A stretch of 64,000 nucleotides of DNA from Prorocentrum cordatum (lineage: Eukaryota), in contig CAUYUJ010000060.1 in NCBI GenBank assembly GCA_963575745.1, positions 1 to 64,000 of the forward strand, given 5' to 3'. The position numbers and the translations under genes are program-made. Below are positions 1,135 through 27,529 of the stretch, one piece after another; position 1 is the stretch's first letter, and every line of letters starts with the position of its first letter. Under the pieces are notes generated by a model, which saw only the letters and a list, made by a program, of their open reading frames with translations, did not search any database and was not told where the DNA came from.

Positions 1135-1259
1135 CTGCCGAGCTCGAAGAGGGCGCCGATGCCCGCGGAGCACAGGCACAGGTACTTCCCCTCGCACGCC
1201 CGGAGCGCGCTCAGGGCCGCGGGTATGCCGTCGACCACGGCGAGGGCGTAGATCACGTC
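1135..1259 (-). CDS. Internal exon of a helical (ARM-like) host protein: DVIYALAVVDGIPAALSALRACEGKYLCLCSAGIGALFELG
   Basis: A complex GC3-saturated island between triplet repeats, with an AG|G acceptor and an AG|GA donor. Confidence 0.7.
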
Positions 1260-1264
1260 CTCCC

Positions 1265-1298
<34 letters not shown>

Positions 1299-1892
1299 GG
1301 AGGAGGAGGAGGAGGAGGAGGAGAGAGAGGAGGAGGAGGTGAGGAGGAGAGGGGGAGAGGAGGAGGAGGAGGAGGAAGAGAAGGATGAGGCGGAGGAGGA
1401 GAGGGAGCAGGGGGGAGGAGGAGGGGGAGGATGAGGATGATGATGATGATGATGAGGAGGAGGAGGAGGAGGAGGAGGAGGGAGGAGGGGGAGGAGGAAG
1501 AGGAGGACGAGGAGGACCCCTGTCGGGCTCTCGCCGACCCCCGCTGGAAAAATCTCCCGGAGGCGCGCAGACAGCCACGCCCCAGGTAGCCGTAGCCTGG
1601 GGGACGGCCTCGACACCCTTGCGCTGCCTTCGGCGCCCCTGAGGCGCCTCGTGCCCCAGGATTAGGCTTAAATCGGGCACGTCCTCCTACAGGCGCATGT
1701 TGGACGATTTTTTCATGCCCAAGCATAATCCCAAAACAAAATCACCAAAATCGTCCCTAGACTATGTTTTACCAACCCTCCTGTGGTTGAGGTACTCGTT
1801 TTGAATAGTGCAATGTGGTCGCGTCCTTCCGTCCTGCCTCCCACCACCCTCCTCATCCTCGTCCTCCTCCTGCGAATCCTGCCTGAAGGGAC

Positions 1893-1925
1893 TCATCATC
1901 ATCATCATCGTCATCGTCTTCGTCG

Positions 1926-1974
<49 letters not shown>

Positions 1975-1982
1975 CATCGTCC

Positions 1983-2049
<67 letters not shown>

Positions 2050-2103
2050 CATCGTCCTCATCATCAGCATCACCATCATCATCACCATCATCATCATCAT
2101 CAA

Positions 2104-2140
<37 letters not shown>

Positions 2141-2454
2141 GTCAGCATCATCATCGTAATCATCATCTGCAGCAGCATCATCATCACCAACATCATCGTA
2201 ATCATCATCATCATCAACATCAGCATCATCATCAGCAGCAGCAACAGCAGCATCATCACCACCGACATCGCCATTATCATCACCATCACCATCCTCAGCA
2301 TCATCATCGTCACCATCGTCGTCGTCGCCAGCATCATCATCATCATCAGCATCAGCAGCAGCAGCATCAGCATCAGCATCATCATCATCAGCAGCATCAT
2401 CAACATTGTCATCGTCATTGTCATCGTCATCATCATCAACATCAGCATCAGCAG

Positions 2455-2485
<31 letters not shown>

Positions 2486-2549
2486 TTCATCATCATCATC
2501 AGCAGCATCAGCATCAGCATCAGAGTATCATCATCATCATCATCACCAC

Positions 2550-2580
<31 letters not shown>

Positions 2581-2731
2581 GTCAGCATCATCATCGTCAT
2601 CGTCTTCGTCATCAACATCATCATCATCATCACCATCATCATCACCATCATCATCATCGGCAGCATCATCAGCATCGTCATCGTCTTCGTCATCATCATC
2701 ATCATCATCATCACCATCAGCATCATCATCC

Positions 2732-2763
<32 letters not shown>

Positions 2764-2814
2764 GGCAGCATCATCATCGTCATCGTCTTCATCATCATCA
2801 TCATCATCATCATT

Positions 2815-2854
<40 letters not shown>

Positions 2855-2985
2855 GCATCGTCATCATCATCAGCATCATCATCGTCACCATCATCATCCC
2901 CATCATCATCACCATCATCATTATCCTCAGCATCCCCATCATCATCACCATCATCATCATTCTCAGCATCCTCAGCATCATCAGC
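1893..2985. repeat. Imperfect (CAT)n/(CAN)n microsatellite; similar arrays at 10390-11015, 18245-18900 and 49347-49540
   Basis: Direct reading. Confidence 0.95.
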
Positions 2986-2986
2986 G

Positions 2987-4700
2987 GGGCTCCGATCTGC
3001 GCAACTTGCCCCACCTTCGTGGGGTCCTGGGAAGGCCAGCGGAGCGGTGTCCCTCGCACACCCAGACGAGACCTCGCGGCTCCCTGGGAGGGCTGCGATC
3101 TGCGCAACTGTCGCAAATTTCGTGGGCTCCTGGGAGGGCCAGCGGAGTGGTGTCCCACGCACACCCAAGCGGGACCTCGCGGCTCCCTTGGGGACTGCGA
3201 TCTGCGAAACCGTCGCCACTTTTGAGGGCTCCTGGGAGGGCGAGCAGACTGGTGTCCCACGCACACCCAAGCGAGACCTCGCCGTCATGGGGGGGCTGCG
3301 ATCTGCGAAACCGTCGCCAGTTTGGTGGGCCCCACGCACACCCAGATGAGACCTCGAGGCTCCCTGGGGGACTGCGATCTGCGCAACCGTCGCCACGCTC
3401 GTGGGTTCCTGGGAGGCCCGGCGGAGTGACGTTCTACGATGACCAGAAAGTGGCTTCGCCGTCCCTTGGGAGCTGCGAGCTGTGCAAATGTCACCAATCT
3501 CGTGGGTTCCTGGGAGGCCCGGCGGAGTGACGTTCTACGATGACCAGAAAGAAGCCTCGTCGTCCCTAGGGTCCTGCGAACTGCGCAATTGTCTCCACCT
3601 TCGCGGGCTCCTGGAAAGGCCAGCGGAGTGGTGTCCGACGCACACCCAGACGAGACCTCGAGGGGGGCTGCGATCTGCGCAACGGTCGCCACTTTTGTAG
3701 GCTCCTGGGAGGGCCAGCGGAATGGTGTCCCACGCACACCCAGACGAGACCTCGAGGCTCCTTGGGGGACTGCGATTTGCCACTGTCGCCACTTTCCTGG
3801 GTTCCTGGGAGGCCCAGCGGAGTGACGTTCTACGAGGACTAGAAAGGCGCCTCGCCGTCCTTAGGGGATTGCGAACTGCAGAACTGCGCCCACATTAGTG
3901 GGTTCATGGGAGGGCGAGCGGACTGGTGTCCCACGAACACCCATACGAGACCTCGCGGCTCCCTGGGGGGCTGCGATCTGCGAAACCGTCGCCAGTTTGG
4001 TGGGCCCCACGCACACCAAGACGAGACCTCGAGGCTCCCTGGGGGACTGCGATCTGCGCAACTGTCGCTTATTTCATGGGTTCCTGGGAGGCCCGGCGGA
4101 GTGACGTTCTACGATGACCAGAAAGAAGCCTCGCCGTCCCTAGGGACCTGCAAACTGCGCAATTGTCTCCACCTTCGCGGGCTCCTGGAAAGGCCAGCGG
4201 AGGCGTGTCCCACGCACACCTAGACGAGACCTCGCGGGGGGCTGCGATCTGCGCAACGGTCGCCACTTTCGTTGGCTCCTGGGAGTTCCAGCGGAGGGAT
4301 GTCCCACGGGGACCACAACGACACGTCGCCGTCCCTGGGGGGTGCGATCTGCGAAACTCGCGGGGTACTGGGAGGGCCAGCGGAGGCGTGTCCCACGGAG
4401 ACCACCATGAGACCTCGCCGTCCCTGGGGGGCTGCGATCTGGAAAGCTGTCGCCACTTTCGTGGGTTCCCGGGAGGTCCAACGGAGTGGTGTCCCACAGG
4501 GACCACCATGAGACCTTTCGTGGGCTCCTGAGAGATCCGTCCAGCGGAAGGGTGTCCCACGGGGACCACCATGAGACCTCGCCGTCCCCGGGGAGCTGCG
4601 ATTTGCGAAACTGTTGCCACTTTTGTTGGCTCCTGGGAGGTCCAGCGGAGGGCTGTCCCACGGGGACCACCATGAGACCTCGCTGCGCTGTTGAATCGCA
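2987..4700 (+). repeat. Tandem satellite, ~102-bp unit (GGGCTGCGATCTGCG..AAC.GTCGCCACTTT...), diverged sub-variants
   Basis: The core recurs at ~2990, 3092, 3194, 3296 and onward. Confidence 0.9.
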
Positions 4701-8659: not shown

Positions 8660-10380
8660 CCGAAACCGATCCCGACCCCCCCGTGGTGACCACCGCGCCC
8701 CTGCATCCCCACCGCCCCACCAGGACCTGGGGGCTCTGTTCCTGGACCCCCCCTGCACCTGACCAATTCTCCCCCGAAACCTTCTGTTGCTCCCATCTGA
8801 CTTAAGGACCATATCCCAGAAATAATTGCGAGCACCCAGAAAAGTACCAAAACAATGTCGAACGAGTATCGCCTCCCAGGGCCCGACACGCGAAAACCCC
8901 CCAGTTTCGGTACTTTCTTGGTGCTCGACATTCTTTCTGGTGACCATGAGGCTAACGCATGTTGGAACATCATAACCGGAACCTACCCCGAGCCCCCCGT
9001 CGTCACCACATCGCCCCGGCATCCTCACCGCCCCCCACGGCTCCAGCCCGGGAGCCGGCCCGGACCACTCCCCCCCTCGGGGCACCGAGGCCTCGCCCTG
9101 GCATCTCCAAAGCTGTGGTCACCACCCCGCCCCGGCATCCCCACCGCCCCGCGCGGCCCTGGGAGCTCATTTCTGCATGGGGACCCCTTGCCCGACCAAA
9201 TCTTGCCCGGAACCGACCCGACCCCCCCCCCCCGTGGTCACCACCTCGCCCTGGCATCCCCACCGCCCCGCGCGGCCCTGGGAGCTCAATCCCGGGGACC
9301 CTGGAACCGACCCTGACCCCCCCCGTGGTCACCACTTTGCCCCAGCATCCCACCGTTCCGCGCGGCCTCGACCTATCCCCACCGCCCCGCACGGTCCTGG
9401 GAGCTTGGACACTCCACACGACATTATTCGGGCCCGACTCTGACCCCCCGTGGTCACCACCTCGCCCCAGCATCCCCACCGCCCCGCACGGTCCTGGAAG
9501 GTCTGTTCTTGTGACCTCCCACCCAACATTCTTTTGACATTGGGACCCCTCACCCGATAATTTGTAATTTGTGGCCCAAAACTGACCCCGACCCCCCCGT
9601 GGTCACCTCCTCGCCCCGGCACCCCCGCCGCCCCGCAAGGTCCTGCGAGCTCTGTTCTTCGGACCCCCCCACCTAACTAACTGCTGGCCCAGAACCGGCC
9701 CTGACACCCCCGTGGTCACCACCTCGCCCCGGCATCCCCACGGCCCCACACGGTCCTGGGAACTCTGTTCTTGGAACCCCCACCCGACAATTTCTGGCTT
9801 GGAACCGACCCGGGCCCCATGCGGTCACCACCTCGCCCCGGCATCCCCATCGCTCCGCAAGGTCCTGCGAGCTCTGTTCTTGGCGCCCCCCATCCGAACG
9901 CTCGACAAATTCTGGCCGGGAACTGACCACGACCCCCCCGTGGTCACCTCCTCGCCCAAGCACCCCCGCCGCCCCGCAAGGACCTACTCTGTTCTTGGGA
10001 GCCCCACCCGACAAATCCCAATTAACTTTCCGACCCCTCACCCGACAATTTCTGGCCCAGAACCGACCCTGACCTCGGGATCCCGCGGTCACCTCCTCGC
10101 CCCGGCATCACCGCCGCCCCGCAAGGTCCTGGAAGCTGATTTCTTCGGACCCACCACCCGACAATTTCTGGCCCGGAACCGACGCTGACCCCCCCGTGGT
10201 CATCACCCCGCCCCGACATCCCCACCGCCCCGCGTGGCCCCCACCGCCCCTCACGGTCCTGGGAGCTCTGTTCTTGGGACCACCCCCAAACGAGCAAATT
10301 CTGGTCCGGCACTGACCCTGACCCCCCCGTGGTCACCACCCCGCCCCGGCATCCCCGCCGCCCCGCACGGTCCTGGGAGC
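8660..10380 (+). repeat. Degenerate tandem repeat (~90-150-bp spacing, ~13 copies), core CCCCCGTGGTCACCACCTCGCCCCGGCATCCCCACCGCCCCGC
   Basis: The core is visible at ~8676, 8995, 9113, 9230, 9320, 9445, 9595, 9707, 9820, 9935, 10083, 10192 and 10325. Confidence 0.85.
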
Positions 10381-11599
10381 ACAGCCTCTTCCTCATCACC
10401 ATCACCACCACCACCACCCTCCTCCTCCTCCTCCTCCTCCTCATCATCATCATCATCATCATCATCAGCAGCATCATCATCACCATCAGCACCACAATCG
10501 TCACCATCGTCATGATCATGATCATCATCATCATCATCACTATCATCATCATGATCATTATCATTATCATCATCCCAATACTGGTCATCATCACCATCAT
10601 CAGCATCAGCAACATCATCATCAGCAGCATCAGCATCAGCATCAGCATCATCATCATCAGCATCAGCATCAGCATCATCAGCATCATCAGCATCATCAGC
10701 ATCATCTTCATCATCGTCGTCGTAATCGTCATCAGTATCATCCTCATTATCATCCTCTTTCTCGCCCCCGTCATCATCGTCAGCAGCAGCAACATCAGCA
10801 GCATCATCATCACTGCTATCATCACCAGCACCAGCACCATCATCAGCAACATCTTCCTAACCCTCCTCCCCCTCATTATCATCCCCATCATCCCCATCAT
10901 CCCCATAAGTATCATCATCCTCATCCTAACCCTCCTCCTCATCATCATCACCAGCAGCATCATCATCAGCATCAGCATCAGCATCAGCATCAGCATCAAC
11001 ATCAGCATCATCATCACTCCTTCCTCCGCCCTCCTGGTCCTCCCTCCTGGTCCTCCTCATCATCACTCCTACCTCCTCCCTTCCCAGTGTCTCCTCATCG
11101 TAGTCCTCCTCCCTCCTCCTCGTCCTCCGCCCTTCTCCTCGTCCTCCTCCAATTCGCGCTCACCCTCCTCCAGCTTCTCCTCCTCCTCCTCCTCCTCCTG
11201 CTCCCCTCCTGCTGCACCTCCTCCTCGCATTTCCCCGCAAAACGGCTCTCGCACGGCTCTCGCATGACTTTATGGGTTCCCGCGAATCCGCCGACTCCAC
11301 CGGGTGTCATCGGCATGTGAGATGCTTCTCCCTCCGCAACCACCTCCCCAGAAACCCCAGTCCGGTGGATCGGAGGGGGCGTCATCCGCTCCAGGATTTG
11401 TTTTCTTGGGGGGGGAACAGGGCCTTGAGGGACTCTCGAGATCCAAAGGAGGCTGAGGGCCACGGACAGCGCGGACGACAGAGCACCACGCCCCCGTGGC
11501 ACGCCGCAGCAGCGGCAGCCGACAGCGGAGTCAGCACCGCACGTCCAGACCAGAACCATACAGGCCCTCGCCATGAAGGCCCCCACGCACTGGGCACAG

Positions 11600-13745
11600 C
11601 AGAATACCTCCCCGTGGGAACACGAGGAGATTCACAAATGTGAGAAATCAGCCTGGGACGAGCCAGCCAGGACCAGACCTGCATTCACCCCAGGCAACGG
11701 CGATGGTTTTGTGTCGCCGCGAGAGGAGGCGCAGTCTCCCCTCGAAGGCCTGTTCAGGGGTCCCTGGAAGGCCAAGACGGGCAGCATTGTGAGTAGACAC
11801 GAACGGATTGCACATGCACGCACACAGCAGCGACACCTTCGGAGGGAGGGGATGGAGCAGAATCAGAGGAGCAACCCACGGTATGGCCACAGGAGCAATA
11901 GGAAATAGGGAACCCATCCATCTGACACAAATCTGGCGACAGCGATGGCAGAACTTGTAATGACGTAAATCGTCGTAGTCTCTGGACATGTCAAACCTAT
12001 ATTCTCTGTGAGTACACCCGAAGATACATCCCCTGGGAGTCGAATGGTAACGGGGGCTGGTACACACACCACGAGCACAAATACGGAGGACACCCATGAC
12101 GAGGTAGGCGGAGGACGCTGCTGCGTTGCGACGGTTCTGGAGGATGAGATGGGAGAGGTCGCTGCAGTCACACTCTGGAAGTCAACCACGGAGGCGATAG
12201 TGCAGCCCTTCAAATGGCGAGGGCTCAGAGAGAGGACGAGCATGGAGACGCAAGTAGAGCTTACGCTGGAAAGTGTCGGGTTTCAAATCAGATAAGCGAG
12301 CGATGCCATGAACAAGCTGGGTAGATTGGAACAAATCAGGGAGGAAGGAGCGCTGATACCAGCCCCTGGGATCGACAACGCGAGCATAACACACTGCGTT
12401 GCTATCAATCGCTCGCTTGAGGTCCGCCCAAGAGTCGGCAATCCCAGGGCGCATATAAGCAAGATGAGCACGACAGGCAGTAGAGAGGGCAGTGATTTCA
12501 GGAGACTCGATCGGAAAACCAAGCTGCTCCATGGACACGAGCACGTCGTAGGAGAAAGCGTTGTATGGGCCACATGTGTCTTTGTAGCATGTGCTTGTAA
12601 ACCTTCTTCACTCCATTCGTCAGGGGCTCAACTTGCATCACCAACTGCACGACAGACAAGCACACGACTTGGAAAGTAGCGACGGTAATATTACAACCAG
12701 GAGAGAGCTGACGAAGAGTAGCACAGCGAGCGACAAACTTTGCCAGCGGCGCTTTCCAAGCGAGGCCAGCAGCTTCTGGGCCAATATGCAGGCCAAGGTG
12801 CTTCATAGCATAGCAGCTTCTTATGTGCTCAAGACCTCCTCCCCAGTGCGCAGGCCCATTCTGGCCCCCCCCCCCTCCCCCGCCGACCACAGGGCAAGAG
12901 AGAGCACTTGCTGCAGTTGGAGAACTAGCCCGACGGCGCCAGCGGGCATAAGCAGGAGCCCTCAGACCTCCTGCAACGATCTAAAGACATCGACCATGCC
13001 AAGGAGACAGTCGTCAGCGCATGCAAGACAAAGGGCGACCTGGGCTGGCAAAGTGTTCTGCATCCACCGAAGCACGGGGTCCAGGCACAGACAGAAGAGA
13101 GCCATAGAGCTGGGGTCACCTTGACGCACCCCTCGAGCGATCTGGAACCGCCCGCACCTTTGGCCCCCCAGGGTAGGTAACCACTCTCACATTGTTGGCA
13201 TAAAGCATCTGGTAGAAGCCCAGGATGAACGATGGCGCGCGCACAGCAGCAAGGGCCGCGAAGAGCCAGTCGTGGAGGAGAGAGGGGGAAGCAGCAGCAA
13301 AGTCAGTGGATAAGATGGCTGCATTACCTTGGCCGAGAAGATGCTGCTGGAGCCCCCGACTCTCTGCCTGCGCAACATTCGTGAGCATCTGCCTACCGTT
13401 GACACACTTCTGAAGCGGAGCTACCGTCGATCTGCAGAAGGCACTAGACAGGATATCGGCATCGGTGTTGGACATCGGGAGCGGACGATTGCCAGCACAG
13501 TCGCGAACAACGTTCCCTTCCCCATCCCCATCCCTGTCCCCTTCCGGTAGAAACACCATCAGTAACTCACCCATATCAGGAGGCAGAGAGTCCACATTGC
13601 CTCGGATGGTCTCTAAATAGAAGTTGTATAAATAGCGAGGCGCATCACCAATGCGCCAGCAGACATATGGGATACCATCAGGCCCAGGCGCAGAATAACG
13701 GCAACTCCGAATAAGGCTGATAAATCAGGATAAATCAGTTTCCCA

Positions 13746-13780
<35 letters not shown>

Positions 13781-14560
13781 ACCCCACCCCACCCCCCCAC
13801 CCCACCCCCACCCCACCCACGGCCGAACTTTCAGGAGCCACTTTCACGTGGGCCAGGATGTCAGCCCAACGCGATTGATCTGAAGGAACAGCCGCGGACG
13901 CAGCTCCCCAGTGCGATGCCAGTGCATCAGCTGACTCCTGTAGGGTGGTACATGGGGGGCCATGCTCCGAGACCACGGCAGTCAGGTAGGTGCGACGTTC
14001 AGACTTCCTCCATAGTTCTTGTTTACGGCGTAGCTTTCCCAGTGCAGATGTGTTGGCCTTTTTTTTTCGCCCCCTTGAACTTGCCCCCCCCCCCCCCCCC
14101 CCCCCCCCCTCCTCCTCCTCATTCAGTATCTTGACGGATAACTCCTGGGCGTGGGAACAAATGCCAGGAAGATCTGTGCATGCCATAGCGTCGGCGTCAC
14201 AAAACTGCTGCAGCACAGGGTAGCAGGCGACGGCCTTGCAGAACAGGCGATCTTGCCTGGCACGCAGGCCACGCATAATAACCACGCACCAGTGATGCTG
14301 CTCTGCGATCTGAGTTGCAACTTGGTCAGCTAAACGCCGACGAACACGAGGGGCGATCTCATGCATGATCTCACTCACACGACCGAGAGCAGCATCTGCA
14401 CCTAGCAGGTCATGCGCTTCAGCACGGGCTCCGAGCTCATGCTCAAGCACTTGTTGGTAAGTATCACGCTTACTCAACCAAATCGGGATAATAGCATTCT
14501 CCCCAGTGGGCGGACGACAAGTTCGAATCTGCGCTAAAGCAGGGATGTGACCCGAGGAAC
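11600..14560 (-). pseudogene. LINE reverse transcriptase and C-terminal region, disrupted by frameshifts
   Basis: RT motifs NRPLPMSNTDADIL, GRQMLTNV, DFAAASPSLLHDWLF, GDPSSMALFCLCLDP, ACADD (~13010-13025) and KHLGLHIG. The C-terminal CIFGC...DDLRHYKFC is a finger-like motif. Confidence 0.85.
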
Positions 14561-15290
14561 GAGCAAGCTTGCCGATCACGGAGGATTAAATGGTTAAATC
14601 GGCGATGATGGCGGCAGGCAGGGAGGAGTAAATCCGAACAAGGCGAGAAATGTCTGCAATATGTCCGTCACGTAGCTCTCGTCTCGTATCCTCGGCATGA
14701 AATAACTCAATACAGGAGCCGCACTTACGAGTACAAACCCCATCAAATCTCACATCTCCATTCGCCCATCCACTCCCATCAGGAAACATGCTGCCCTCCT
14801 CCTCTAACGCGAAATTCCAGTCCATTTGGATAAGAGAGAAACGCTGCTCAGCTGGTGGCAAAACCTCCATTAGCTCATGCAGCGAATGGGCGTATACATG
14901 CAGCGGCTCGCACGCATTCGGCATATGCACACTCATGATTACAAGCTTCCCTTTCCCCCAATCAAAATTCTGAGAAGCATCCTCCCTTCCTGGATGATAT
15001 GGAGAAAGGCAAACCGACAACGCCGAGCGAGCTCGGGCGCAAAGTACGTGACAAGGCCCCCAGCACGAGTGGAGTCATTGAACATAGTACCACCAACACT
15101 CGATCCGCGGAATTCCCCCTGAAGAGCACCAAGGTCGGCGACGGCCCCACGGGTCTCCTGAGCACGCACAGTCTGGCATTTCCGACAAAGCCCCAAGAAC
15201 TTGCCAGGTCTAGCGGCAGCGTTGCGCTGACGACGCGATCTAACGGCCGCGAACAGTCCACGAGCGTCCCACGTCACAATATTGAAGGGG
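14560..15290 (-). pseudogene. LINE apurinic-like endonuclease (APE/EEP) domain, frameshifted
   Basis: Motifs FNIVTWDARGL (TWNxxG), AQETRG (QE), SVHMP, MDWNF (GDxN) and SRLVRIY (SRLDR). Confidence 0.85.
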
Positions 15291-15369
15291 GTAGGAGGGA
15301 AAAAAAGGCTACTGGTGCGAAGAATGATTAGGCCAGGGCGGAAGTGGTACACTGGGCAAAAACAAAAGA

Positions 15370-16368
15370 ACAGAAGCAGGGTCAGCAGGCACAGGCTCCT
15401 GCTCAGAGTCAGAGGAGGACGAAGAGGCGGACGAGGTAGAGGACGCTGAACTGATACTCATTGAATTCGACTCGCCGACAGCGAACCCCGAGCTGGACGG
15501 CGTAGATGTAGCTGGTAGCGTCGACCTTCAGGAGCGGTAACCATCGATCCACTTCTGCAAAACGTCGGTAGTGATGCCCCAGTAGCGCAGATCCTCCTCA
15601 TTCGGCTTGAGCAACAACCGGCCTAGTGAATCGGTCTCCCCTTTGGCGAGCACGAAGTGGTCCGTATCGGTGCGAATGAAAAACTCGTTGCGGAAGCCGT
15701 TCGCGCCGATCGTGAGTTCATTTGAGAACTGGTTGATGCTGTGCAGGTGCTGGACAACGGGCCACCACATCTTGGACATGTGGCGTTGACGCAGTCTGAC
15801 GTCGTCTGGTAGATCAGAACGAATGCTGAGAGCGTGGAACTTGTTATCTCGTGGATCAACTCATCGGTGTTCTTTGCCTTGAAACCATAGTTTGAACTCG
15901 CTCGCCAGCTGGAGCTGCAAAGTGGAGTGAGAAGCTCTGACTGTTCTTCGCGAACTTGGCCGTGATCCCTGCTACGAGGTGCGAAGGGGCAGTTGGCTGG
16001 AGAAGAGACCACGTCTGGCGACGAGTGGAATCCAGCACCGCCCGTGGGAAGCCCGAGATCCATAGGCGGCAAGAGTCGGTGTCGGCGTTGTCCTGGAAGT
16101 CGATGTTGCCGTTGGTGCGAAGCCTCCTGTGGCCAGGCAAAGACGACGCCGCTGACGGAAGACTCGTAGTGGCTTCTTTCAAGCTCTTCTCAGTGGCGGT
16201 TTGCTTGGCTTGAAGTTCTTGAAATTTGATCTCGAGAGCCGCCATTCTGCCATCAATCACTTTCACCTGGCTGGTTAGTTGGGTGTGCGTCTCCTCCACG
16301 CGACGTGACAGGCTCACGAATTGCCCCTCGGCAAAAGCAGCAAACCACGCTGGCGCCGCATCTCCCAT
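15370..16368 (-). pseudogene. LINE ORF1 (coiled-coil plus RRM-like region), frameshifted
   Basis: MGDAAPAW... is followed by the heptad region LSRRVEETHTQLTSQVKVIDGRMAALEIKFQELQAKQ and then RLWISGFPR. It continues in shifted frames (15623-16072, 15528-15779). It lies between the SL and the endonuclease. Confidence 0.7.
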
Positions 16369-16507
16369 GGCCAGTGTGAGGAATGCAAAGAAGACTGAGT
16401 GGCAAGCTGCACTCAATCCTAAGGGTGCGGAGCCGAAGAAGGCGGGCCTTTCCCCAAAGCCAGAGCATCCCCGTCGGCTGCGACCAAGGATCAAACCCCA
16501 GGGGCAG

Positions 16508-16530
16508 CTTTGAGCCTTGAGCAAAAATGG
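16508..16530 (-). other. Two relic spliced leaders (CCATTTTTGCTCAAG and GCTCAAAG) in tandem after the intact SL
   Basis: 16516-16530 (-) matches the 15-nt relic CCATTTTGGCTCAAG at 14/15, truncated after the SL-internal AG. 16508-16515 resembles a shorter relic. Confidence 0.85.
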
Positions 16531-16552
16531 CTTGAGCCAAAATGGCTACGGA
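16531..16552 (-). other. Intact dinoflagellate spliced-leader sequence TCCGTAGCCATTTTGGCTCAAG (retro-integrated, not an SL RNA gene)
   Basis: The reverse complement of cttgagccaaaatggctacgga is an exact match to the DCCGTAGCCATTTTGGCTCAAG consensus. It is followed by a relic leader rather than an SL intron. Confidence 0.96.
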
Positions 16553-17343
16553 GGGGTGTCATCCGCTCCAGGAATGATCCTGGACGACCTCCGGAGGCCT
16601 CCAGAAGGCCCTCGACGGCACACAACGCCCCAGGAGAGTCTGAACACAGGCCAGGATGCCCCGAAGCCGACCACTGCCGAAGAGGCAAAACCCACGGTTC
16701 CTTTAGGACATCGTTCTTCTATCATAGCCGACCGGGCTCGCCAGAGGCGTGCGGAGATCCGAGGCAACAGGTTACAAGGCTAATAGATTGCCACAGAAGC
16801 TGTGGTGAGGGTTCCGCGAACAACAAATCCATGGAGGGTCCCACAACAACCGACGAAGGCCCCCAAATGCTCCAAGAGACCACCAAACCGCCCTACTACC
16901 CCCAAAACGGCATGCTCCCCCTTTCGGCATTCCGACGCCCAACTACCACCATGACGGCTACAAGAGGACGCCCCGCCGAAAAGCAACACTCGGACGTTCC
17001 GGAAGCTCGGCTCCAAAAAGGTTCCAAGCAGCCTCTAGGAGCCTCCCACATACTATTCTGGAGCACACACACACACACACACAAAACAGCCACCATGCAA
17101 CTGGCGGGGTCACCCCCCACCCGCCCCTCTCCTCGTCCGACGCCGGCCCCCGACATAGCCCCAAAATAGCCCAAGGGAGCCCCAAAGCTGCCAAAGAAGT
17201 CCAGCCCCAGGAGGGGCCCAAGAACAGGAGCCCGAAGCGACAAGTGGAGCTTGAAGAGGTCCCCAAGGGTCCCCAAGAAACCCGTAAGAAACTCCAAGAG
17301 GGCCCTGGCCCCCCCAGACGCGCCAAGAGAGCCCCAAACTGCC

Positions 17344-17400
<57 letters not shown>

Positions 17401-17439
17401 CAAAAGCCGCCCCCGAAAGGCCCCCACGGGGTCCTCCAT

Positions 17440-18000
17440 TCCTCCTCCACCTCCTCCTCCACCTCCTCCTCCTCCTCCTCCTCCTCCTCCTCCTCCTCCC
17501 CCTCATCTCCTCCTCCTCCTCTCCTCTTCTCCTCCTCCTCCTCCTCCTCCTCCTCCTCCTCTTCCTCTCCTCCTCCTCCTCCCTCCTCCTCCTCCTCCTC
17601 CTCCTCCTCCTCCTTCTCCTTCTCTCCTCCTTCTCCTTCTTATCCTCTTCTCCTCCTCCTCTTCCTACTCCTCCTCTCCCTCCTCATCCTCTCTGCTCCC
17701 CTCCTCCTCCTCCTCCTCTCCTCGTCCTCCTACTCCTCTCTCCTCCTCCTCCTCCTCCTCCTCCTCCTCCTCCTCCTTCCTCTCCACTCCTCCCTCATCA
17801 TCCCTCCTCTCTCCTCCTCCTCCTCTCCTCTGCTCCTTCCTCCTCTCCTACTCCTCCTCCCTCCTCCGTCTGCTCCTCATCCTCATCCCCTCCCTCCTCC
17901 TCCCCTCCTCCTCCTGCTCCTCTCCTCCATCCTCCTACTCCTCCCCTCCTCCTCCTCCTCCTCCTCCTCCTCCTCCTCCTCCTCCTCCTCCTCCTCCACA
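17440..18000. repeat. (CCT)n/(GGA)n polypurine tract; many more at 600-720, 1030-1100, 1265-1510, 6900-7150, 37320-37500, 42505-42640, 44680-44985, 54120-54300, 57085-57160, 57705-57885 and 63060-63415
   Basis: Direct reading. Confidence 0.95.
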
Positions 18001-18260
18001 ACCTTCACCTCCTCCCTTCTCGTCATTTTGCATCCCCGCCCCCCCGAGGCGGCCCACGCCTGTCGAGCCCCTTGCACAGGAACGCGGACGCGTCGCGGCC
18101 CCGCAGGGCGGCCAGGACCCTCGTGGAAACCTCTGCAGGCCAGAGGGGCTTCGAGGGCAGCAGAAGAGGCGCCCTCCCATTATCCTCGATCCTCCTCCTC
18201 CTCCTCCTCCTCCTCCTTCTCCTCCTCCTCCTCCTCTCTCCTCCTCATCATCCATCACAT

Positions 18261-18301
<41 letters not shown>

Positions 18302-18331
18302 TCACATCATCATCATCATCATCATCATCAT

Positions 18332-18362
<31 letters not shown>

Positions 18363-18488
18363 GCAGCAGCAGCATCATCATCATCATCATCAGCATCATC
18401 AGTCATCATAACATCACCATCACCATCACCACACCACCATCATCATCATCATCACCATCATCAGCATCCTCATCAGCAACAGCGTCAG

Positions 18489-18520
<32 letters not shown>

Positions 18521-18844
18521 GCAACATCATCATCATCAACATCCATCATCATCATCATCATCATCATTCATCATCATCATCCATCATCACCACCACCCAT
18601 CACATCATCATCATCATCATCATCATCAGCCAGCAATCAGCATCAGCAGCATCATCATATCATCACATCATCATCATCAGCCACAGCATCATCACAACAT
18701 CACCATCACCATCACCACACCACATCATCATCATCATCATCAGCATCCTCATCAGCAACAGCGTCAGCATCATCATCATCATCATCATCAGCATCATCAT
18801 CATCATCAACATCATCATCATCTCATCGTCATCATTCATCATCA

Positions 18845-18899
<55 letters not shown>

Positions 18900-20179
18900 C
18901 CCCATCCATCCTCCTCCTCCTCCTCCTCCTCCTCCTCTCCTCCTCCTGACAGCCTCCTTGCTGTCGCTGTCACTGTCGGCATCAGCGTGACGGTTGACAC
19001 CGTAATCCCTCCGTTTCTTCTTCTCCTCCCCCTCCTCCTCCTCCCCTCCTCCTCTCCTCCCCCTCCTCCTCCTTCTCTCCTCCTCCCCCTCCTCCTCCTC
19101 CTCCTTCTTCTCCTTCTCCCCCCCCCCTCCCCTCCTCCTTCTCCTCCCTCCTCCTCCGCCTCCTCCATCCGTTTGCCGTTCCAATGACGCCTCCCTGTGG
19201 CACCCCGAGACGTGTCGACGGGGCGGGCCTGCGTTCCGCCTCGGACTTCGCCCCGCCTACGACCCCGGAGCTTCAATGTTGCAGCAACTTGACGGATGGC
19301 GGGCGGGCAGCTTTGAAAACATGGCTTTCGCCGCAGCGCCGCGCAGCTTCGTGTCATGAAAAAGGGTGCAGAGACGGGGATCGTTTTGCAAACGGGGCTC
19401 TCACCTCCTCCGCCTCCTCCTCCTCCTCCTCCTCCTCCTCCTCGTCCTCCTCCCTCCTCCTTCTCCCCCTCCTTCTCTTCCTCCTTCTCCCCCTCCTCCT
19501 CCCCCTCCTCCCCCCTCCCCCTCGTCACCCCTCCTCCCCCTCCTCCCCCTCCTCCTCCTCCTCCTCCTCCTTTCTCCTCCTCCCATCGTGCTGCGCACAT
19601 CGGTCTTCACAAGTTGCAGCAGCTTCCACGGTGGAGGGCGGGCGGCTTCCGAAGCACAGTCGAGGCGCTGACTCATAAGTAACCCGACATGAGGGACGAG
19701 GCCCCTGGTCTTCCATGAGCTGAGCCTCGATTTCCCACAGAACACCCGAGGCGCCCTCGATTTGTCTGGCTGACCGGTTGCAGCAGCTTCGAAGCCGGAG
19801 GGCGGGGCGTGCGGAACATGGGGGTCCCGCCACGGCGCCGCACGCACTCTTTTGAGGGGGCCCTGGGACACACAAATAGAAAGACACAAAGAACAGGATC
19901 CCCTTTTTTATATTCTTTGGGTTTTCGTCTTCCCCCCCACTTCCCATAGTTTCCCATACTTTCCTGGGAGTCGACGATCAATTGTGTCTGTGTGTTTCTT
20001 TCCCTCCTGATCGTTTTCACACTTGCAGCCGTTGCAATGATGGAGGGCGGTTCCGTTTCAGAGTGGGGAATTCACTTGAGACTCAGTTTGATCGCAAGCC
20101 CTGAAGCTTGAACACAGGCAACAGCTGCACAAATGAAAGACAAATTCTTGCCACAGTTGAACGTCCGCTTGATCGTTCT

Positions 20180-26075: not shown

Positions 26076-27529
26076 CCCCCCCCCCTAGCACACGACGACG
26101 AGGTAACCCCTACACACAAGCCCCTAACACTGACAGCCAGACTCGAGAACACATTAACTCGGAGCGCGCCTGAAAGTGAAGCTTCAGCGCCTTGAGCTTC
26201 TGGGGGCAGGCGGGGCTGGAGCGACCACCCTGACGCTATGCAGGGCGCGAATATCCGACGCGTTGCAGAAATTAGAGGCGACGCTGCGAGCAGGCTCGAA
26301 AGGAGGGGGCACCCTTCGAAAAAAAGGTACCCACACGGCCAATCCGCCCTTCTGAGAGGGCCACAACAGCACCGGCACCCGCGGTGCCTGACCGATCCAA
26401 GCGCCGATGGTCGGGACCTTTAAAACGGATGCCAAAATCCCCAGGAAGGATACTCGAGCCCCAGGAAAGGCAGGGCGGGGGCCGAAACTATGACCAAGGG
26501 AAGACATGCAGGTGCACATTGGGATAGGAGGCGGCATTCCTCGGATTTAAGGAGGCAATGCAAAAGTGCGTTAAAAAACGCGTATGGTCACAAACCCCTA
26601 ACACTAGAGCCAGACTTGAGTGCGCATTAACTCGGAGCGCGCCTGAGAATAAAGCTTTAGTGCCTTAAGCTTCTGGGAGCAGGCGGGGATAGAGCGACGA
26701 CCCTGAAACTATACAAAACGTGAATATCCGACGCAGCGCAGAAACTAGAGACGATGCTGCGAGCAGGCTCGAGAGGAGGGGGCACCCTCTGAACAGGTAC
26801 TCGCACGGCCAATCCGCCCTTCTGAGAGGGCCGCAACAGCACCAGCACCCGTGGTGCCTGACCGATCCAAGCGCTGATGATCGGGACCTCTAAAACGGAT
26901 GCCGAAATCCAGTCCCGACCCTTCTTGACTGGCACGCGTGCCTCTGGCAGCCCTGAAAGGGAGCGGCGCGCGCGCGGGGAGGGATGGGGAGAATATGGCG
27001 TCGCTCTACAACCGTGTTTAAAAACACCTGCTTTATCCCTGATATATCGCTCACCGAGGGAAACGCCAGGAGGACAGGAGAGCGCTCGCGCCCTGCCGAC
27101 GAGGTTCCAGCGGAATACAGCTCGGAGATGGTCCGCCGGGGTGCCGCCTCGCTTACCACGGGGGGCGGGGATCGTGAATTGCTGTCGCAGAGCCCCCCAA
27201 ACGGACAAAGAGGGAACATGATGCTCATGTGTATATATGTAACTATAAATATGCGTTTAGATAGCGGCGCCTTGCCCTCGGGTGCCCTGCTGTGGATGGC
27301 CTGCCTGCAGGCTCTGCCCCGCCGTCGGCCATGCTGGCAATCGCCGGCAGTTCGACGGCATCGTGCGTGACTGAATCCAGTCTGCTGGTCAGCTCCTTTG
27401 CCAGCGGTGCGTCACGCACGCCCGAGCAACGGACAGCTTGGCAAATATGACAAGCTGCCCTCTTCCAACAGGCCCCCCCCCCCCCCCCCCCCCCACCCAC
27501 CCACCCACCCCCACCCCAACCTCAAACTG

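Follow-up and report, generated by a model that had tools for sequence, protein, structure and literature searches.

A structurally complete L1-like LINE in Prorocentrum cordatum with stacked spliced leaders inside its target-site duplication

Within a 64,000-nt stretch of Prorocentrum cordatum DNA (contig CAUYUJ010000060.1 of assembly GCA_963575745.1, positions 1 to 64,000; here called the window), the minus strand carries a long interspersed nuclear element (LINE) with two open reading frames (ORF1 and ORF2) and an untranslated region (UTR) at either end. The element is headed by the 22-nt dinoflagellate spliced leader (SL; DinoSL) and by shortened relics of it, and the whole unit is enclosed by a target-site duplication (TSD; Table 1). 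A preliminary description, made from the letters alone, had proposed a 21-bp TSD abutting the first base of a perfect 22-nt leader, followed by a 15-nt relic, a shorter relic, a UTR of about 140 nt and ORF1. The perfect leader and both relics were all recovered, on the minus strand, the UTR measures 139 nt with the ATG at 16368, and the 21-mers are identical at 20 of 21 positions as claimed; the full duplication is longer, at 24/25 nt. Its adjacency to the leader was upheld, with the qualification that TSD and SL overlap by 3-4 nt (TCC, then G), the end of the one being also the start of the other.

The 21-nt conserved core of the DinoSL, searched for across the 64 kb with up to 3 mismatches, gave a single match, which is exact (16551..16531), while none of 100 shuffled controls contained any match; a T precedes the core and completes the exact 22-mer, so that a DNA-encoded DinoSL stands at the 5' end of the unit, as in DinoSL-tagged retrocopies. 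The 15-nt relic motif (at most 2 mismatches, whole window) was found in two places only, inside the SL itself and at 16530..16516 (1 mismatch), and 0/100 shuffles reached two or more matches. Relic 1 starts directly after the AG that lies inside the SL (CCGTAG followed by CCATTTT). A relic that begins at this point (CCATTTTGGCTCAAG, 14/15 positions) is a further mark of DinoSL-tagged retrocopies, and its cut at the SL-internal AG is the trace expected of re-splicing onto the leader of a parent copy. The 8-mer of relic 2 occurs once in the window, both strands counted, and truncated relics resembling it (CTCAAG type) are described in the accessible text of PMC12014239. After the SL comes the relic, and neither a GT donor nor an SL intron. 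An Rfam scan of 11000-17000 (E up to 1) returned no SL gene and no ribozyme, only 2 weak and irrelevant matches (E 0.24-0.29). A self-cleaving (HDV-like) 5' ribozyme, as in R2 or L1Tc, was accordingly not recognised by Rfam, and a novel one may be conceivable.

The 16-mer core of the TSD (TCCTGGAGCGGATGAC) occurs exactly twice in the window, at 16573..16558 and 11396..11381, that is, at the two ends of the element only; the 21-mers had been flagged as a possible common dispersed repeat, and within the 64 kb they are not one. With 2 mismatches allowed, 1/100 shuffles reached two or more matches to this 16-mer. Local alignment pairs 24 with 25 nt at the cost of 1 mismatch and one 1-base indel, and its score of 42 compares with a mean of 14.3 and a maximum of 27 among 2000 shuffles. 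The TSD flanks the whole unit, as it does in LINEs, and encloses the leader stack, which separates the 5' TSD copy from the body of the element; the SL was therefore part of the inserted cDNA, which derived from an RNA with a trans-spliced SL. The TCC/G shared by the TSD end and the SL start leaves SL positions 5-22 as the part that is certainly cDNA-derived; such microhomology is usual at LINE 5' junctions. Altogether, the copy was inserted by an event of the endonuclease type, with target-primed reverse transcription (TPRT), that left a 24/25-nt TSD, and its template RNA carried the trans-spliced DinoSL at the very 5' end.

Table 1. Features of the LINE copy and of its insertion site, listed 5' to 3' along the minus strand, with the lesions of the reading frames at the end.
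Feature	Position	Strand	Remarks
5' flank		minus	reads ...GGATCAT, before the 5' TSD copy
5' TSD copy, TCCTGGAGCGGATGACACCCCTCC	16573..16550	minus	last 3 nt (and the next G) are the first SL nt
Complete 22-nt DinoSL, TCCGTAGCCATTTTGGCTCAAG	16552..16531	minus	DNA-encoded; exact match
Relic leader 1, CCATTTTTGCTCAAG	16530..16516	minus	matches the SL after its internal AG at 14/15 positions; tandem period 15
Relic leader 2, GCTCAAAG	16515..16508	minus	SL 3' end plus one extra A; probable, short
5' UTR, 139 nt	16507..16369	minus	start Met conserved with P0059
ORF1	16368..15528	minus	L1 ORF1p type (coiled coil, RRM, C-terminal domain); natural stop TGA 15530..15528
ORF2, whole	about 15289..11648	minus	stop TGA 11650..11648
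ORF2, endonuclease (APE-type) region	15289..14520	minus	hhalign and relatives with Exo_endo_phos
ORF2, reverse-transcriptase region	13724..12800	minus	RVT_1, relatives, tblastn colinearity
ORF2, C-terminal region with Cys/His motif	12799..11648	minus	tblastn colinearity
3' UTR, 251 nt, ending ...CCCCCCCCAAGAAAACAAA	11647..11397	minus	no poly(A) tail
3' TSD copy, TCCTGGAGCGGATGACGCCCCCTCC	11396..11372	minus	directly at the element 3' end
Frameshift in ORF1	near 15929-15920	minus	
Frame switch in ORF2	between about 14975 and 14945	minus	endonuclease region
Premature stop TAA	14588..14586	minus	endonuclease region
Premature stop TGA	13727..13725	minus	just upstream of the reverse-transcriptase region
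Frameshift in ORF2	near 13171	minus	reverse-transcriptase region
Frameshift in ORF2	between 12890 and 12803	minus	
Frameshift in ORF2	near 12577	minus	C-terminal region
Premature stop TGA	12184..12182	minus	ORF2 C-terminal region

Pfam, run on 12 ORF pieces of the element, gave only a sub-threshold RVT_1 match for reverse transcriptase (RT; piece 12962-13186, E 2.8e-5, 24.3 bits, under the 29.6-bit cut-off of Pfam), and the endonuclease had no direct match on the broken pieces. The ORF2 piece 13119-13724(-) has 58 protein relatives (E up to 1e-3, best 2e-21, PF00078) with identities of at most 37%, many of which are 1150-1250 aa long and combine the endonuclease PF03372 with the RT PF00078. 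In tblastn with 8 of these endonuclease and RT proteins, the window is colinear with their residues about 100-1152, and yet another frame (15289..14975) encodes the N-terminus of the endonuclease, as recognised by matching 14942-15457(-) to the alignment of the relatives in hhalign (probability 86.7%, E 4.3e-6). One relative (P0002), with Exo_endo_phos at 8-227 and RVT_1 at 542-784, matches the PDB structures of R2 (1e-18) and human L1 ORF2p (1e-16) about equally strongly, so that any assignment of the RT to a clade is tentative.

ORF1 aligns with an intact protein of 281 aa (P0059) in two different frames, at 67% identity over the first part and 72% over the second, and shares with it both the start Met (MG[D/E]xAPAWF) and the stop. 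No Pfam family was found in ORF1 or in P0059. The fold was examined on this intact homologue and not on the broken ORF1 of the window: an AlphaFold2 model built with 43 family members (mean predicted local distance difference test score, pLDDT, 89.6) consists of a long helix and two alpha/beta domains, and the first nine Foldseek ranks are all human L1 ORF1p (E 3.6e-5 to 2.4e-3), followed by generic RNA recognition motifs (RRMs). The global template modelling (TM) score to L1 ORF1p is low, 0.21-0.34, with the domains placed differently. The second-closest ORF1 relative (P0060; identity 46% in BLASTP and, within the stretch that matched, 60% in phmmer) bears the source label of a transcriptome of the green alga Pyramimonas sp., where dinoflagellate contamination or a mislabel is possible. 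The element thus has a non-LTR RT, that is, one of the kind without long terminal repeats (LTRs), together with an N-terminal APE-type endonuclease and an ORF1p-type ORF1, as LINEs do. The poly(A) or A-rich tail of L1 proper is absent from its 3' end, where the 3' UTR directly meets the TSD. It is an L1-like APE-type non-LTR retrotransposon of a GC-rich dinoflagellate, without poly(A). No further copy was found within the window, where only low-complexity matches were returned. Two C homopolymer runs (G on the sense strand) lie inside ORF2, one at 13749..13818 (+) of ~70 nt with 79% matches and one of 26 exact nt at 14084..14109; they read as poly-Gly in the frame of the element, similar runs occur near 27473 and 53825, and they are probably secondary simple-repeat expansions.

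This copy is structurally complete but dead. The earlier label of a full-length LINE holds for the structure and fails for the reading frames, which carry at least 5 frameshifts and 3 premature in-frame stops. A public DNA sequencing run of the same organism (X1), seen as short contigs that break at the SL, includes contigs that agree with the window in every letter at 12159-12602 and 15927-16132, and one that departs from it at a single position at 13129-13442, so that an independent assembly backs the frameshifts at 12577 and 13176. Diverged copies of the family are also present in this run, with differences at 6-18% of positions over 11594-13662; they have an additional AA after 12577 and lack 4 nt at 13176, and each of these changes restores the frame by frame arithmetic on the tblastn frames. 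The lesions at 12577 and 13176 are therefore confined to the window copy or to copies very close to it. Judged from these sequences, the family had readable members, and the window copy decayed after or apart from them. The depth of the contigs is lower in ORF1 and the 5' UTR than towards the 3' end of the element, a pattern that 5'-truncated LINE copies would give; it is a rough guide, inflated wherever SL words occur, and was therefore not used for copy number. In two further runs of the same study (X2 and X3), examined for the empty site, the flanks were not covered.

Independent relatives with leaders at their heads were sought with P0059, which by phmmer against 1.84 billion representatives returned 112 ORF1-family proteins (E up to 1e-3). 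Of these, no more than 10 lack a start Met, being open at the 5' end and hence able to show upstream sequence. One protein (P0131, 449 aa, E 1.9e-6) starts with LAQ-AILAQ-AILAQ-AILAQ, 14 codons, then Met. AILAQ is a one-frame translation of the 15-nt relic and, 15 being a multiple of 3, a stack of such leaders stays in frame; P0131 accordingly appears to record at least four tandem leaders directly upstream of a distant ORF1. The only contig of P0131 is 5198 nt long, as is the only contig of P0008, which comes from the same source type and is an intact 1169-aa endonuclease and RT relative of ORF2. Since 449 aa, 1169 aa and UTRs fit into 5.2 kb, we infer one full-length and intact LINE with a leader stack. 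SL-derived peptides were found in none of 60 proteins (the 58 ORF2 relatives, P0059 and P0060); an HFGS in P0002 and P0010 lies inside the endonuclease domain and was read as chance. Scans of viral contigs with P0131 and P0059 returned no relatives, and a scan of genome contigs with one alignment returned 7 distant loci in metagenome-assembled genomes (MAGs), none with the exact SL 15-mer.

Metagenomes were scanned with the ORF2 alignment, and 80 loci of 455 relatives were kept, none of them above 47% identity and none with a homologous ORF1. The SL 15-mer (at most 2 mismatches) was present on the plus strand at L001, L042 and L061 and on the minus strand at L031. The SL 12-mer (at most 1 edit) was present at 9/80 loci, several of them at chance level by a rough estimate, and extended convincingly into an SL at L001, L042, L059 and L061 only. 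At L059 an SL-like TCCGTCGCATTTGGCTCAAG at 47-67 (one degenerate unit) precedes an RT ORF that is open from 74 to 1201 and has no endonuclease, and at L042 three SL-like units at 52-129 stand upstream of an RT ORF likewise devoid of endonuclease; in some dinoflagellate LINE copies classed as 5'-truncated, it may have been the RNA that was shortened, by internal trans-splicing. The other two loci show leaders in other settings. L001 has an intact C-terminal part of ORF2 (879 aa, no stops) to 2641. The stretch behind it (2642-3526) holds a 3' UTR of ~150 nt (...aaaacaaaacttgtgtatgta) and, right after this, a near-perfect SL (TTCCGTGGCCATTTTGGCTCAAG) that runs straight into an ATG with an open frame of 238 aa, which belongs to no known family, so that an SL-headed unit abuts a LINE 3' end. 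L061 is an 11.7-kb contig with its LINE relative at 1187-3390 and, 6.7 kb downstream (10090-10140), an SL with two relic-like units (…TCCGTAGCCATTTTGGCTCAAGCCACATTGGCTCAAGTCGCTCTTTTGGCTCGAA…) that heads no ORF1 or ORF2 homologue.

From these observations we consider it probable that a structurally complete L1-like LINE has been copied from SL-capped RNA, repeatedly, and that its leaders were retained in the DNA. The repeated passage of the lineage through SL-capped RNA is well supported, and at least two, probably three, consecutive full-length rounds took place in it; the count of at least 2-3 cycles proposed earlier from the stack agrees with the SL, relic 1 and the probable relic 2. On this reading the parent copy would also have begun with a DNA-encoded SL, and the grandparent probably too. 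The parent would have been transcribed from somewhere upstream, either by read-through from neighbours or from the TTT(T/G) motif in the relic, which the accessible text of Song et al. 2017 (PMC5585692) proposes as a promoter. Its pre-RNA would have been trans-spliced at the AG inside the old leader, which would restore a capped, full-length ORF1-ORF2 mRNA; in every round the trans-splice acceptor would be the AG of the leader before it, and the leader would act as a portable 5' end for any transcript that comes into the copy from upstream. The proteins of the element itself would then copy the SL-capped mRNA back into DNA, its RT recognising its own non-poly(A) 3' UTR, and the cycle would have run two to three times before the present copy decayed. 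As for the surroundings, both flanks are of low complexity (10322-11320 and 16809-19187), with (CTC)n at 11017-11226 and repeats of the CAC/CAT/CTC type, which give very long open frames of His/Gln/Leu/Ser/Pro runs. Pfam found no family in the 20 largest ORFs of the window, which are flanking ones; the flanks being simple repeats without Pfam families, no neighbouring gene can be named as a source of read-through.

The strongest rival to this reading, though an unlikely one, is that of a passive retrocopy: a LINE inside a host transcription unit, perhaps defective already, would have been trans-spliced like a downstream cistron and retroposed in trans by the machinery of another element, and the SL would say nothing on how the family normally propagates. 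Retroposition of SL-capped mRNAs is pervasive in the accessible accounts, and ~20% of dinoflagellate genes carry SL relics. Besides, SL joints were found at internal positions of the element in X1. At one of these joints 16247 immediately follows the 22-nt SL; the site is 1 nt ahead of an internal ATG (16245..16243, MAALEIK...) at whose Met the database ORF1 fragments P0099 and P0072 begin; the joint is off a clean AG as reported, the skipped part ending in CA. At the other joint, one contig links the SL, by way of 19 other letters, to the final ~270 nt of the element, which start at 11665, 15 nt before the ORF2 stop; it may be a short SL-led non-autonomous unit riding on the LINE 3' UTR or a retroposed product of internal trans-splicing. 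SL addition is therefore not confined to the AG of an old leader.

Several points weigh against repeated propagation by way of the leader. The internal joints fit opportunistic trans-splicing of any LINE-containing RNA as well as a dedicated cycle; the SL-like heads of L042 and L059, which count in favour of the main reading, suit a passive retrocopy too, sitting as they do on truncated RT pieces; the window copy, being dead, gives no evidence that it is the active copies which bear an SL head; the family was inspected at its 5' end in one copy only; and P0131 and P0008 are placed on one contig by the equal length (5198 nt) of their contigs and were not seen there together. An SL (up to 5 edits) was found upstream of 0/11 metagenomic ORF2 relatives that have the N-terminus and some flank, which is weak evidence, as these are 21-36% identical, have at least 1.2 kb of flank in at most 5 cases and come from unknown organisms. 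Finally, the literature is divided. In favour of the leader, the accessible text of Song et al. 2017 (PMC5585692) reports that the Gene Ontology (GO) term 'RNA-dependent DNA replication' is enriched among genes with DinoSL relicts; a 2019 Symbiodinium preprint on two genomes finds, in its accessible part, that genes with DinoSL relicts and RT genes share none of their enriched functions, and calls the processes independent. The proposal that this LINE propagates as an SL-capped mRNA stands in part: the stack inside the TSD, the AG-cut relic and the head of P0131 bear out repeated passage through such RNA, and the internal joints, the decay of the copy and, weakly, the 0/11 count speak against a cycle as orderly as was proposed.

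Against a passive origin, however, the copy closes with the non-poly(A) 3' UTR of the element itself, which meets the TSD without a gap, just what recognition of this 3' end by the RT of the element would give, and the whole ORF1-ORF2 body came through each of two to three consecutive cycles. Moreover, other copies are frame-restored at two frameshift sites, with no sign that the parent was already broken, and the relative made up of P0131 and P0008, if the two do share a contig, would be intact in both proteins and yet carry at least four leaders. It is very unlikely, in turn, that the SL was acquired during reverse transcription, by a template switch from the LINE RNA 5' end onto an SL-bearing RNA or by RNA ligation. 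LINE cDNAs can pick up small nuclear RNAs, as human U6/L1 chimeras show in the accessible text of PMC6789731, and the joint at 16247 would suit such an event, being off a clean AG. After a switch of this kind onto SL RNA, the cDNA would nevertheless include the SL intron or begin at the 3' end of that RNA, whereas here the 22-nt exon alone is present; relics cut at the SL-internal AG are the signature of repeated trans-splicing, and the same 15-nt periodic stack recurs in P0131. That the stack came from the target (an older relic or an SL gene) or from an assembly join at a repeated SL is the least credible of all, for although SL contigs are numerous in X1 (37 loose ends at 16516 and 29 at 16552, their flanks diverse; depth ~2000) and none of the contigs listed bridges the SL, neither scenario yields TSD copies outside the stack and at the element 3' end, the flanks are simple repeats and not SL genes, and the endonuclease is APE-type, unlike the restriction-like type of elements specific to SL genes.

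The closest known system is the DinoSL 'cDNA recycling' that gives SL-tagged retrogenes, reportedly described by Slamovits and Keeling in 2008. Both have a DNA-encoded SL and relics that start after the SL-internal AG, in stacks that are read as repeated rounds; here, in contrast, the cargo is an autonomous retroelement itself and not a host gene, and one sees both a clear TSD of 24/25 nt and a 3' end that is specific to the element and lacks poly(A). Stacks of SL relics are treated as a record of the repeated retroposition of host genes in the accessible texts of PMC5585692 and PMC12014239, and reviews, as far as accessible, call the retroposition enzyme and the integration mechanism of SL-tagged retrogenes unknown, one of them favouring an LTR element. 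Among LINEs, SymbioLINE and SymbioLINE-Dnmt of Symbiodiniaceae (de Mendoza et al. 2018, PMC5890265) are described in the accessible text as having ORF1 and ORF2 (Exo_endo_phos and RVT_1), TSDs and conserved 5' and 3' UTRs, and as elements that 'lack Poly-A tails'; the main text of that paper, without its supplements, contains 'spliced leader' 0 times. The present element shares with SymbioLINE the two ORFs with both ORF2 domains, the TSDs and the lack of poly(A). It differs from SymbioLINE-Dnmt in that its ORF1 is L1 ORF1p-like and no cytosine methyltransferase was found.

With human and other mammalian L1 the element has in common the ORF1p fold (coiled coil, RRM and C-terminal domain), the APE endonuclease and RT of ORF2, TSDs and frequent 5' truncation; it is distinguished by the absence of poly(A) and by a 5' end that is a trans-spliced leader, where L1 has a UTR with an internal promoter. 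CRE1/2, SLACS and CZAR of trypanosomatids and NeSL-1 of nematodes are LINEs that insert into SL RNA genes at a fixed site, and such SL-gene-specific elements have a restriction-like endonuclease. These, like L1Tc/ingi, are LINEs of genomes with SL trans-splicing whose 5' ends are tied to the SL system. In the P. cordatum copy, unlike in CRE, SLACS, CZAR and NeSL, the SL lies within the inserted cDNA and inside the TSD, the flanks are simple repeats and there is no SL intron; insertion at a fixed site in an SL RNA gene was not found. L1Tc/ingi use the internal promoter Pr77 and have unspliced transcripts, according to the accessible texts of PMC1874656 and PMC8190864.

Full-text searches of open-access papers, main texts only, brought up no explicit account of a LINE whose own 5' terminus is a DinoSL with stacked relics inside the TSD. 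The known DinoSL cDNA recycling extends here to a LINE itself, which for a specialist is a natural corollary of universal trans-splicing. One may go further, tentatively and with rather more doubt than confidence, and suppose that a whole group of dinoflagellate L1-like LINEs lacks a promoter of its own and relies on SL trans-splicing to remake a capped, full-length 5' end from any passing transcription. The DNA leader (its AG, perhaps also the TTTT/G motif) would then be the sole 5' signal, the relic stack would count generations, and the same TPRT machinery, acting on other SL-capped mRNAs, would be the engine behind the ~20% of dinoflagellate genes that are SL-tagged retrogenes. Should SL-headed copies prove to be rare accidents, the locus would be a well-preserved example of known cDNA recycling. 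The SL-capped RNA that was integrated at this locus encodes the LINE machinery itself, and its insertion left a clean TSD of ~24 nt and the 3' end of a LINE devoid of poly(A). The locus thereby links SL-tagged retroposition to endonuclease/TPRT-type LINEs, and it provides signatures to look for at host retrogenes, namely the length of the TSD, the target sequence and the type of 3' end. Three answers to the LINE 5'-end problem are known: an internal promoter, co-transcription with ribozyme cleavage, and insertion into SL genes. The present element suggests a fourth, trans-splicing onto the previous leader.

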